Of a DNA stretch of 64,000 nucleotides, positions 9,001-15,000 are shown piece by piece (position 1 is the first letter of the stretch; each line of letters begins with the position of its first letter). Made by a program: the position numbers. Source of the DNA: Escherichia coli (lineage in GTDB: Bacteria; Pseudomonadota; Gammaproteobacteria; Enterobacterales; Enterobacteriaceae); assembly GCF_045037415.1 (NCBI RefSeq), contig NZ_CP173438.1. One strand, written 5' to 3'.

Positions 9001-12000
9001 GCGCTGAATGCCTGCCGGGTTTACCCACTTTCAACTGGTAACCAGGAACAACATGAAATCATTAACCACGGAAACAGCACTGGATATTCTGATTGCGTGG
9101 CTGCAGGACAATATCGACTGTGAATCCGGGATTATCTTCGACAACGATGAGGATAAGACGGATTCAGCAGCACTGTTGCCCTGCATCGAACAGGCCCGGG
9201 AGGATGTCCGTGCTGTTCGTCATCTGCAGCTTCTGCACCAGAACCGGTGAATATCACTCACCATACTTCATTCCCCTGACGCCAGCCTGAATACAGCTGG
9301 CGTTTTCGTCTATAAACCAAAAGGAAAACCGATAATGTCAGACATCACAATCTCCCGTCCGGAAGTGGTCACCGGGCATACGGACGTTATCTGCTCCACC
9401 AGTATCCGACACGTTGTGACGGTACGGAATGCAGCACTGCAACAAACCGAAACGCTTATCCGGCAACTGGCAGAAATCTCAGTGCTGACAGCAGGCATTG
9501 GCGGCAAAACCGCCCTGGACTGGGCGATGAAACAGAATTTTCGCTGTGGCTGCTGGCTGATGGAAAAACCGGAAGCAGCAATGAAAGCCATCACCCGCAA
9601 TCTCGATCGAGAAATCTGGCGTGACCTGATGCAACGTTCAGGGATGCTTTCCTTAATGGATGCACAGGCCCGTGATACATGGTACCGATCACTGGAATAT
9701 GATAATTTTCCGGAAATCAGTGAAGCGAACATTCTGAGCACATTTGAACAACTGCACCAGAACATAGATGAAGTGTTTGAGCGAGGGGTGATCAACGTCT
9801 TCAGGGGACTGAACTGGAATTACAAAACTAATTGCCCCTGTAAATTTGGCAGTAAAATTATCGTCAACAATCTGGTGAGATGGGACCGGTGGGGATTTCA
9901 TCTTATCACCGGGCAACAGGCAGATCGACTTGCCGACCTGGAAAGAATGCTGTATTTGTTCAGCGGCAAACCGATTCCTGACAACCGGGAAAACATAACC
10001 ATTCATCTGGATGATCACATCCACTCAGTATTAGACGTCAACTAGTTTTGCCGACTCGCGCCAACTATACTGGCCGCACCCTTCAGTGCGACATCAAGTC
10101 GCGCTTGTTACTGCCTTCGCTGTCTTTTTCCTGTAGCTTTCACCTTTCAGTTCGAACATATATCCGTGATGGATCAGCCGGTCTGCCGCCGCCACCGCCA
10201 TAGTCTCATCCACGAAGATGCTGCCCCACATGCTGAACGGATGGTTACTGGTTATCACCAGGCTCCCACGTTCATAGCGATGCGCTATTAACTCGAACAG
10301 TACTCCCGTTTCGGCGCTGTCGCGTTTGACATAGCCAAGATCATCCACCACTATCACCCGGTAGCGATCCAGTTTCAGTAGCAGCTCATTCAGTTTCAAC
10401 TGCGCTCTGGCTTTACGTAGTTCCTGCAACAACTCTCCTGCGCTGTAGAACCGGGCCCGGTAGCCCTGGCCTACTACGCCATCCACGATCGCTGCCGCCA
10501 GATGGCTTTTCCCCAACCCGCTGGCTCCGAACAGCAGAACGTTTTCTCCTGCATCAACCCAGTCTGTCGTTTCACAGAGTTGCCGGAACTGAGCTCCATT
10601 CAGTTCCGGCACCTGACTGAAGTCGTATTCGCTTAGCGTTTTGGCAACTGGCAACCGGGCCTCCTTTTTATAACGACGCAGTTTTTCACTCTCGCGCCAC
10701 AGGAGTTCTTCATTGCATAGCGTCAGAAGATAGCGCGATGGTGTCCAGCCTTCTGCCAGTGCTCGTTTTTCCAGAGCGTGCCATTCAGCTCCAACTCGTG
10801 TCAGGCGTAGTTTACGCAGGCTGCGTTCAAGGTGATGGATATTGCTCACTGCGAACCTCCCTTGCCACGCAGTAGTTGCTCATAACTGCTCAGGTTATGC
10901 TGTTTCACATTGACTACCGGCAACGCCTTTTCCTTTATACCCAGGAAGCGCATCAGCCGGTGCAGATCCACGTTTCCCGGGGTATTCAGCATCTGCTCCA
11001 TACCTTTTGCCACGACTGAGATATCGTCGTATCCTGCAGCCAGTTTCAGAGCATGTACCATCAGCCTGCCTGCCATGTCGGGTTCCAGATGATTACATAA
11101 GCGACGCCACAGCCTCCGCCATTCATCGTCTGGCAGGATGTCATTTCTCAGCGTTGCATGGCAGAACGCACCGGGCTTTTTTGCCAGACTGTCGATCACA
11201 TGTCGGAAGTCGATACGACGGGCCCGCGTCTTCCCTTTTTCTGGTCTGACACGTGGGCAGCTCATGACCTCGCTGCTGCCAACGTAACGGCTCAGACGAT
11301 CGTCCCATAACCGGACCCGTAACAGTTGACCTACAAGCCGGGAAGGTACGCTGTAGACGACGTGCTTCACATTGATGGTACTGCTGCGGCTAACCCTCAC
11401 AGTCAGCTCATCATAGTCAGCACTGCGACGAAGCGGCAGCGGTTTCAGATGAAGACGTTCTTCCTTGACCAGATCCTGATTGTTACGGTTGTGCCGCATA
11501 ACCTGCTGAGTGATGAAGGCCTGATATTCTTCTATGGTGCTGAAGTCGTTACTGCCCCGCAGTATCAGCGCCTGACAGATACGCCTTTTCAGATGTCCGT
11601 GGGCACTTTCAACCGAGCCATTTTCGTGGCCCCGACCGGCATTATTGTGTACGCCCTGCATTCCGTAGTGCTGACAGAGAGCAGCATAACGCTCAGTCAG
11701 CTCGCGGCGTCCATCTTCGCCCTGTTGTTTCCATGCTGCCCTCAGGCTGTCCGTTTTATGTTCTACCGGCACTCCGCCCAGTTGTCCGAGGGCTTCCTGC
11801 AGACCTTCAGCCAGAGCAGAGAAGCTCTCACCACCCAGCACAACCCGCATCCAGCTCCAGTGGCTCCATTCCAGACGGAAGTGATACAACTTATGCGCCA
11901 ACAACTTACCGGCGATGGTGACAACTACACCTTTCAGTTCAGTAAAGTCCGACAGACCTCGCAGACCGGGCTGATGTCGCTGGCGGAACATGACCTCCTG

Positions 12001-15000
12001 CTCTGCACCATACTGTAGCTTCCATTCGCGGACCCGCCGTTGCATTGTTCTTCGAAGGCTGTTGGGGTACTGGCCGGGATATTTATCCTGTAGCATCTCC
12101 AGCAGAGTTGTTGGTGTCAGAGCCGGCCTCTCTTTCAACAGAGGAACAAGCATGCTGTCCCACACAGCTTCCAGAGGATCTTTGCGTGTGCGCCAGTGCC
12201 GAACACTGTTTTTTGCCCACTCTCCTTTTTCGATCCGACGACCAGAACGGACTGAGATACCAGCCTTCATGGCCGAGATATGCTGAGTTATACCTTTCTT
12301 ACGCTGAGTCATATAGTAACTGACCTGAGAAGTATTGAGCGTCACGCCATTTCCTGTTGGATCATGTAAATGACACTCAGGTTACAAAACCGGCCAGAAT
12401 AATCGGCGCCAGGCGGACTGAGTTATTGTCGTCTCATACACTCAGTTCAGGGTAAAGCGTGCTATGAAGATGAGATGTTCAGCATCAGATACTTTAAGAA
12501 GGGCTCCGCGCACATCACGTTCAGGAAACCAGAGCTGGTTGACAGATTGAATGATATTATTGCGAAATACTATCCGGAAACCTTATCGCCCGTTTAACCC
12601 AAAGCACAGACTCAGTACATACACAAAAACATTCTGATAAATCTGGCGTCATTCAGAGCAAAAAAACATGTTTTCCAGATTATTTGTAAAAAAACATACT
12701 CCAGCTATGGTGGCAGGTAGTCTGATATTTCTGTTCATTATTCTGCTGACATTTTTCTGGAAAAAAGCAGAGCTGGTGAATGACAGCCAGATCAGAGTTA
12801 ATTTCGCACTTGGCTATATAGAAAACATTCTCAATCAGAACAACAGCATCAGCCAGGAAGCAGAACATTTGCTTCTGAATAACTGTAACGCAGATACTCA
12901 GCATGAATTAAGCAATCTGCTGCTGAAACGCCCACAACTTCGTGCACTGAGCCTGGCAAGACAAGAGGCTGTATTTTGTAGCACCCACCCCGGTTTACCT
13001 GTCGGTCCAGTTGCTGAAAAGGAACAGTGGCGGCACGATATGCTGATTCGTTTTCCTGAAGATACAGGTACTCTGCCCTGGATCCTGTTAAGAACACCTT
13101 ACAAAAACGGCACGGTCATTACCGCCACGGATTATTATTTTATTCAGGACATCATCTCTGTGGTTCATGCGGTTCCTGCAATACGATTCCGTTTGGGAAA
13201 CACGGTCCTGTCAGCCAGCGGAAAAAATGTCACTCTGCTCCCGGACGACAGCGGTATACAAAAAGAAAGTCATTCAAAAAAATATCCGTTCTCCCTGATT
13301 TATATCATCCCGGTGAAAATGCAACTTACCTACGCCTGGAAACAGGCCTGGTATATGATCCCTGTTGCCATCTTCGGTGGAATACTCACAGCCTTTCTGC
13401 TGTCCCGCCGACGTCCATCTTCCCCGCTCGATATGCTGAAAAATGCACTTGCTCACGGAGAGTTCAGACCTTATTTTCAGCCCATCATTTCCGCTAAAAA
13501 TCACCAGCTAACCGGCTGCGAAGTACTGATTCGCTGGCATCACCCCGTCAGCGGAATTATCCCACCAGATCAGTTTATCCCGCTGGCAGAGTCCACCGGA
13601 TTAATTGCCCCGATAACGCAACAGTTGATGTCTCAGGTCGAACATAGCCTTAATTCTGTTGCGCATTTTTTACCGAATCAATTTCATATTGGGATCAATA
13701 TTTCACCAGCGCATTTTCTGTCTCCGGGACTGGAGGATAGCTGTATGAAGTTTCTATCCACCTTCCCGAAAGGGAAAGTGAAACTGGTTCTGGAACTGAC
13801 AGAACGAAACCAGCTATCCGTCACCGCAGAATCAAAAGCGTTATTTGCGAAATTACATCAACAGGGAGTATTGTTTGCACTGGATGATTTTGGTACTGGC
13901 TATGCAACCCACAGCTACCTGCAGTCGTTTCCTGTCGATTACATCAAACTCGATAAAGGGTTTGTACAAATGGTCGGCGTGGATGAAATCTCCGGGCATA
14001 TAGTAGAAAATGTTATTGAGCTGGCTCGCCGGTTAGGTATTGATATCATTGCCGAAGTCATTGAAACCGAATCACAGGAATTGTTCATGACAGAGAAAGG
14101 AAGCTGCTATCTGCAGGGATACCGCTATGCACCTCCACTACCCGCTGAACAGTTTATTGCTGAGTGGGTATACAACAGCGGAAACGGCAAAAACCAGAGA
14201 TAACACATACTGAAATGGACCAGGATATGCGTCCCCCCCTTTCACCTCATCTCCCAACTCCCGGGTTTGATTCCTTTTTCACAGCAAAAGGGACTGAGGG
14301 TACAAAAGAGGGTACATTTTTAACCAAACCAAACAAAATTAACCAATCTCAACATGATAGAAGCAATCTTCGATTCCGAGTCCGGCACCAAATTCATATA
14401 AACGGACCTCCACGGAGGTCCATTTTTCGTTTCAGGACGCCACGATTTAAGCGTCCTGCCGCCAAATCAATTCTACCGAACTCAACCAGATTCTCCCCAC
14501 ATCACCAGCAATTTGCGGGCATATCCCAATTCGGGAAAATTTGTTTCTGAGCTATAGCGCTGACTGACGTGAAATGTCGTGCGGCCCCGTGATGCTGTTG
14601 AACGTCAAATGACGTCATCAGGAGCGTAATGCATCCATAAAGCACAACATCGGGCAGAACGCCAACTGATGAGATTTTCTGAATGAGAACAAAGAGAAAT
14701 GTATCAGTCCGTTTGCTCATGCAAAGACTAACAATCCATTAAAATAGTAAGCGCTCCGGACAATTTTTCATGGATTATTTTCTGAACATTTTTCTTTGGC
14801 AAAGATGATGAATTTTGATGGTAAGGAAAATTACTTCTGGTTCTCAGTAAAATCCTTTCGTAATACTATGTAATCAAGAAGTTTATGGCGAGTAAAAATA
14901 ACGTCTTGCATTCACCAATAATATGTAAATAAACCCATCTATAGATGGAAAAAATAGGTTATGGCAATTATCATTGCATCATTCCCTTTTCGAATGAGTT

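Follow-up and report, generated by a model that had tools for sequence, protein, structure and literature searches.

IS21, the prototype found on plasmid R68.45, and IS5376 are organized alike, with two overlapping genes coding for a DDE transposase (IstA) and an AAA+ helper ATPase (IstB), long imperfect terminal inverted repeats, and a short duplication of the target DNA. The IstA of IS21 has 390 aa, and target duplications range from 4 to 8 bp across the IS21 family. IS5376 has an IstA of 400 aa (PMC10122671), and many members of the family generate a 5-bp duplication (PMC11208146); in IS21 and IS5376, the termini are TG...CA and the duplication is of 4–5 bp. A tandem-junction promoter has been described for IS21 (PMC10122671). 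Longer transposases are also on record: in Mycobacterium, ISMyo2 (2387 bp) carries an istA of 1578 bp and an istB of 813 bp with overlapping stop and start codons (PMC4608216). We examined here a 64,000-nucleotide stretch of Escherichia coli contig NZ_CP173438.1 (RefSeq assembly GCF_045037415.1), called the window in what follows, in which a complete element of the IS21 family, ISEc10, lies on the minus strand at 10029–12438 (2410 bp) within a gene coding for a DUF4942 protein.

The window element shares with IS21 and IS5376 the two-gene organization and the long imperfect repeats, and the IstB proteins are homologous; it differs from them by its longer IstA (499 aa, against 400 aa in IS5376), its TAT...ATA termini, and the 6–7-bp duplications found for ISEc10. 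It is closer to ISMyo2 in its size of about 2.4 kb and in an IstA of about 500 aa or more, a likeness that is one of description, not of sequence, with an element from an unrelated host. It does not detectably differ from the copies that RefSeq names ISEc10 on E. coli chromosomes and plasmids: identity is 100% over the full length, istA (1500 nt) and istB (756 nt) have the same sizes, and the ends are the same.

Identity and Spread of the Element

Elements are by convention held to be the same in ISfinder when they exceed 95% nucleotide and 98% amino-acid identity. A megablast search of the element against 5,426 complete E. coli genomes found it in 898 of them, with full-length copies at 100% identity in many chromosomes and plasmids; 490 records with copies of at least 99% identity are named “IS21-like element ISEc10 family transposase” or “helper ATPase IstB” in RefSeq. 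That the element is ISEc10, already known and annotated, is in our view very probable, the name being that of RefSeq and of the papers that use it. Plasmids also carry the element, 520 of them, in Escherichia, Salmonella, Klebsiella, Shigella, and further genera. Carrier genomes have a median of 1 place occupied by the element and a maximum of 22; the listed genomes that share the insertion described here show 1 each. As for its mobility, fresh ISEc10 insertions beside lpp have been selected in strain CFT073 (PMC7482066), and an ISEc10 insertion is known in the afa promoter of a strain of sequence type 131 (ST131) (PMC8764528). One has to keep in mind that the element, its family, its mobility, and its exact insertion in the DUF4942 gene are all in public annotation and, as such, already known: the site is a textbook example of simple insertion by a known insertion sequence.

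Boundaries of ISEc10 and Target Duplication

The insertion is made up of the following features, given in window coordinates:

9335–10028, plus strand: 5' part of the DUF4942 gene (PF13708 profile positions 1–142 of 190; RefSeq WP_001621817.1)
10022–10028: left target duplication, CACTCAG (single copy at the empty site L002, strain ATCC 11775)
10029–12438, minus strand: ISEc10, IS21 family, complete, 2410 bp (full-length copies 100% identical; ends from nine copies)
10029–10076: right-hand terminal inverted repeat, istB-proximal, about 48 bp (inverted repeat and end-to-end alignment)
10094–10849, minus strand: istB, 251 aa, AAA+ helper ATPase, GTG start (PF01695, NF038214, 8q3w)
10846–12345, minus strand: istA, 499 aa, DDE transposase, GTG start (NF033546, PF22483; RefSeq WP_029700729.1)
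12391–12438: left-hand terminal inverted repeat, istA-proximal, about 48 bp (inverted repeat and end-to-end alignment)
12439–12445: right target duplication, CACTCAG (sequence repeat)
12446–12597, plus strand: 3' remnant of the DUF4942 gene, last 49 codons and stop (RefSeq pseudogene “DUF4942, missing N-terminus”)

The octamer CACTCAGT occurs exactly twice in the window, at 10022–10029 and 12439–12446, once against each end of the element; about 1.3 chance copies are expected in 64 kb, and a match of 7–8 bp at both exact termini would arise by chance at a rate of about 4^-7. An earlier note on this DNA, made from the sequence alone, had read these repeats as an intact 8-bp duplication bordering an element of 2409 bp (10030–12438). 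The eight identical flanking bases are indeed there, but independent ISEc10 copies, retrieved by BLAST with a query beginning at 10030, place the boundary one base further out. The base preceding ATTAGACG is a T at all nine independent sites (the terminal T...A is invariant across the nine copies), while the base that follows the right-hand repeat is C, C, G, G, A, and A at the six sites with a recognisable duplication. Since the former is constant while the latter varies, the T belongs to the element; ISEc10 therefore starts at 10029, and its target duplication in the window is the 7-bp CACTCAG. The T at 12446 is a target base matching the first base of the element, and the eighth matching position is a coincidence. 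With the T included, the termini TATTAGACG and TATGAGACG are symmetrical.

The boundary and the duplication of ISEc10 can now be given precisely, as 2410 bp and 6–7 bp, respectively. The duplication is of 6 bp at eight sites (L005, L007, L008, L011, L012, L015, L021, and L017, the last being a miniature element) and of 7 bp at L004 as well as in the window; comparison of the flanks revealed no duplication around the copies at L003, L013, and L023, which presumably reflects later rearrangement. L004 (ST131 strain S10EC) and L006 (strain AHB24) hold, near kpsF, an older ISEc10 copy that is 98.7–99.3% identical and whose istB is broken by an internal stop; a 2-bp difference between the two genomes at the right junction gives an apparent duplication of 7 bp in the former and 5 bp in the latter.

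The terminal inverted repeats of the window element, of about 48 bp, are imperfect, with 34 identical positions out of 50 in the end-to-end alignment and termini reading TAT(T/G)AGACG; a TG is found only at positions 3–4 of the istA-proximal end. Internal copies of the terminal 22-mers, which would be candidate transposase-binding sub-repeats of the kind typical of IS21-family ends, were searched for with up to 8 mismatches, and none was found. An outward-facing TTGACG lies 7 nt from the istB-proximal tip, and GACAAT occupies positions 9–14 of the other end; two abutting ends separated by 2–3 bp would space these motifs by 17–18 nt and could form a junction promoter, a candidate counterpart of that of IS21. 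At the present site, TTGACG is directed towards the 5' DUF4942 fragment in antisense orientation, and the flank offers no −10 box to go with it; a promoter and terminator scan of 9900–12700 yielded no more than expected from shuffled sequence and no hit at either end of the element.

Reconstitution of the Interrupted Gene

Joining 9335–10029 to 12447–12597, i.e., removing the element and one copy of the repeat, restores in frame an open reading frame (ORF) of 846 nt and 281 aa, in agreement with the earlier note; the shift of the boundary has no effect on this result, as the same number of bases is deleted under both readings. Neither of the outcomes that would have refuted the note by its own account was observed. 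The restored protein covers the whole DUF4942 profile (PF13708, positions 1–190 of 190, 229 bits), against positions 1–142 only for the present truncated ORF, which extends to 10045 through four element-encoded residues (LDVN) and a stop, for a total of 236 aa. The insertion falls at about codon 232 of 281, so that the 49 C-terminal residues, and with them about a quarter of the DUF4942 domain, are lost. Both gene fragments around istAB are already in the RefSeq annotation. We infer that the function of the DUF4942 protein was lost through the insertion. As for what this function is, neither PADLOC nor the PDB gave a match, the matches in PHROGs are families of unknown function and, in part, a “DNA methyltransferase” family, of which only the N-terminal half is matched, and the literature that mentions the domain does not address its function.

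Occupied and Empty Sites in Other Genomes

An empty-site query of 595 nt, made by deleting the element, was found at full length and 99.8% identity in ATCC 11775, S88, APEC O1, and at least 27 more of the genomes listed. We restricted the comparison to these 30, as the 267 genomes matched at 80% coverage or more include allelic or paralogous islands of lower identity. The empty-site genomes have the same neighbourhood (DUF957, DUF4942, EAL) with an uninterrupted 846-nt gene, and the protein of ATCC 11775 (WP_001280513.1), like that of S88, APEC O1, and others, is identical to the restored one; ATCC 11775 has a single CACTCAG(T) at the site, and its sole difference from the reconstruction is a synonymous C/T at window position 12547. 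This position is a T in the 3' remnant and a C in ATCC 11775; the other listed empty-site genomes also show one mismatch each over the 595 nt. The T could serve as a marker for revertants of the insertion. Among the 5,426 genomes, an empty site at 100% identity, i.e., with the T allele of the lineage, was found in none, so no precise excision was observed; the suggestion that the insertion is potentially reversible found no support.

Of the complete E. coli genomes, 156 have the left junction (9880–10179) and 163 the right one (12300–12600), some of the occupied genomes being labelled O25b:H4 or O25b:H4-ST131. Because the same junctions recur in so many genomes, the insertion is inherited within a lineage and is not private to one strain. 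It had been called recent, and it is so insofar as the two gene fragments have not decayed further; its presence in 156–163 genomes makes it recent on the scale of the lineage only. The junction could mark a subset of the ST131-type E. coli lineage, and a lineage successful in the clinic has had its DUF4942 gene knocked out at no evident cost. Many E. coli genomes, AZ146 among them, match the first 24 kb of the window at 100% identity; CP015085 was dropped as an exact comparison strain, being 98.99% identical over 22 kb with 14 gaps. In strain S3 (NZ_CP196491.1, 332474–336135), the IS3-like ISEc52 has in turn inserted into the ISEc10 copy that occupies this DUF4942 site.

Transposase and Helper ATPase

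The two minus-strand ORFs of the element have the sizes given in the earlier note (499 and 251 aa), and the stop codon of istA shares bases with the start codon of istB in a GTGA overlap. Profile matches place the element in the IS21 family. IstA matches the NCBIfam model NF033546 (“IS21 family transposase”) over residues 12–304 with 227 bits for a cut-off of 160, followed by a Mu-type beta-barrel (PF22483) at residues 311–366 with 29.2 bits for a cut-off of 27; its layout comprises a helix-turn-helix and catalytic region (12–304), the beta-barrel, and a long C-terminal tail (367–499). IstB matches NF038214 (“IS21-like element helper ATPase IstB”) with 267 bits for a cut-off of 200, PF01695 with 209 bits, and the solved structure of the IS5376 IstB (8q3w) with an E-value of 5e-45; it has, as is characteristic of the DnaC-like AAA+ ATPases of the family, a Walker A motif (GASGLGKS) at residue 108 and a Walker B motif (VIVVDDL) at residue 165.

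The size of IstA had been singled out as exceeding the roughly 390 aa of classic IS21. It is indeed larger than its IS21 and IS5376 counterparts, by about 90–100 residues. The NF033546 model (294 positions) aligns from end to end with the 304 N-terminal residues without any large insertion; as the family model ends at residue 304 and the beta-barrel occupies residues 311–366, the extra length lies in the C-terminal tail, which is of about 133 residues versus about 45 in IS5376. Such a length is not unusual for the family, as seen in ISMyo2 and in the Klebsiella relatives of ISEc10 at 85–89% identity, for which istA is of 1500 nt in all those retrieved: some members of the IS21 family normally have an IstA of about 500 aa.

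Origin of the Insertion and Alternative Explanations

The best overall explanation, and one we hold with very high confidence, is that a copy of ISEc10 inserted once at this site and has been inherited vertically. The target would have been the DUF4942 gene of the CP4-like island that adjoins cadCBA, and the event would go back to an ancestor of the lineage that includes the O25b:H4-ST131 strains, with vertical inheritance of the insertion since then. By analogy with the model established for IS21 and IS5376 (PMC10122671, PMC11208146), IstA tetramers would bind and pair the inverted repeats of about 48 bp and cleave the ends; IstB decamers would assemble on the target DNA, remodel it, deliver it to IstA, and activate the latter. 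A strand transfer staggered by 7 bp, followed by repair, would then leave the CACTCAG duplication at the DUF4942 site.

None of our observations contradicts the identification, but a few do not fit so well. The tips of the element are TAT...ATA, versus the TG...CA usually quoted for the IS21 family; its 7-bp duplication exceeds by one base the 6 bp of most other ISEc10 sites; and the RefSeq IstA record of the window (WP_029700729.1) differs from that of the plasmid copies. Moreover, a phmmer comparison of IstA with the PDB sequences matched no chain at E-values up to 10, and the Pfam rve domain was not detected in it even at E = 1. Its family membership therefore rests on the NCBIfam model, and, with both matches missing, IstA appears to represent a divergent branch of the IS21 family.

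The remaining explanations bear on the limits of the element, the place of the event, and the present state of the element. An element of 2409 bp at 10030–12438 with CACTCAGT as an 8-bp duplication would account for the eight identical flanking bases, and the window alone cannot separate it from a 7-bp duplication next to an element-borne T; the nine sites with a T, the six with a variable base after the right repeat, and the symmetry that the T gives to the termini leave it hardly any credibility. The insertion might also predate its arrival, the island or a segment of it having been transferred or recombined in with ISEc10 already in the DUF4942 gene. The CP4-like island that holds the gene is, after all, mobile and has an integrase remnant; DUF4942 genes are commonly found in paralogous islands, in as many as 7 places in a genome; and ISEc10 is plasmid-borne in several genera. 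The occupied site was, however, not seen in any other chromosomal context, and the flanks of the occupied genomes are 100% identical over 24 kb that include the core genes cadCBA and lysS, which fits clonal descent; we regard such a prior transfer as unlikely, and it would alter only the place of the event, not the nature of the feature. It is less probable still, and in our opinion quite doubtful, that the element is by now an inactive relic, stuck at its site and incapable of either transposition or excision. Most carriers do have a single copy (median 1), and no revertant allele was found; nevertheless, the two ORFs and the two ends are all intact, copies at other sites match the nucleotide sequence at 100% identity, ISEc10 is mobile in CFT073 (PMC7482066), and some genomes harbour it in up to 22 places.

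Other Copies and Miniature Elements

In E. coli NCTC 86 (L003, 3002–5410 of NZ_OZ489144.2), a 99.9%-identical ISEc10 lies directly upstream of another DUF4942 gene, one that belongs to a paralogous CP4-like island; the DUF957 gene is absent there, and no target duplication flanks this copy. The arrangement suggests that a deletion or recombination took place next to the element or that the region is a favoured target, and the presence of ISEc10 beside a paralogue of the DUF4942 gene is a hint that such a target may be preferred or selected.

In Citrobacter braakii ATCC 51113 (L017, 8422–8484 of NZ_NAEW01000004.1), a 63-bp miniature consists of ISEc10-type ends only (25 + 13 + 25 nt) and is bounded by the 6-bp repeat CAGGTG; a 97-bp version, without clear duplication, is found at L016 around 7609–7705. 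Both look like derivatives of the miniature inverted-repeat transposable element (MITE) type that the ISEc10 proteins could mobilise. If the ISEc10 clade were a distinct subgroup, its traits would be the TAT...ATA tips, the 6–7-bp duplications, the long IstA tail, and these Citrobacter miniatures of 63–97 bp. We consider it very unlikely that the clade is such a distinct IS21 subgroup and/or that the insertion is non-neutral, its fixation in an ST131-type lineage reflecting selection for the loss of DUF4942 or for an altered expression of the neighbouring EAL gene, which is of the cyclic di-GMP phosphodiesterase type.

Island Context and Other Features of the Window

The DUF4942 gene is the last but one of the CP4-like island, whose order is antirestriction, JAB, DUF987, cbeA, cbtA, DUF5983, DUF957, DUF4942, and EAL, followed by an integrase remnant and cadCBA. 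The last gene is:

12668–14203, plus strand: EAL-domain gene, 511 aa (ORF; RefSeq WP_000492897.1)

It begins 70 bp past the DUF4942 stop codon, and 2.4 kb of antisense DNA now separate it from the island operon upstream; it may have lost read-through transcription as a result (polar effect). ARAGORN predicted no tRNA gene in the 64-kb window, and the attachment tRNA of the island must therefore lie beyond the window start or have been lost. The only trace of an integrase is a frameshifted fragment between the EAL gene and cadC (about 14588–14747).

Further along the window, melA (47506–48861) overlaps yjdF (46859–47509) by 4 bp, and melB is absent between them; in K-12, the melibiose permease gene melB stands between melA and yjdF. 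Two near-identical small GNAT acetyltransferase genes (24586–24858 and 40059–40331, 271 of 273 positions) bracket a block of about 15.2 kb that encodes an autotransporter (25072–29001), an AraC-type regulator, an S6-family serine protease (31885–35697), and a fimbrial chaperone and usher (to 39949). In strain AZ146, this block holds an additional IS1A that is not in the window. The block has the appearance of an island whose insertion duplicated the target gene.

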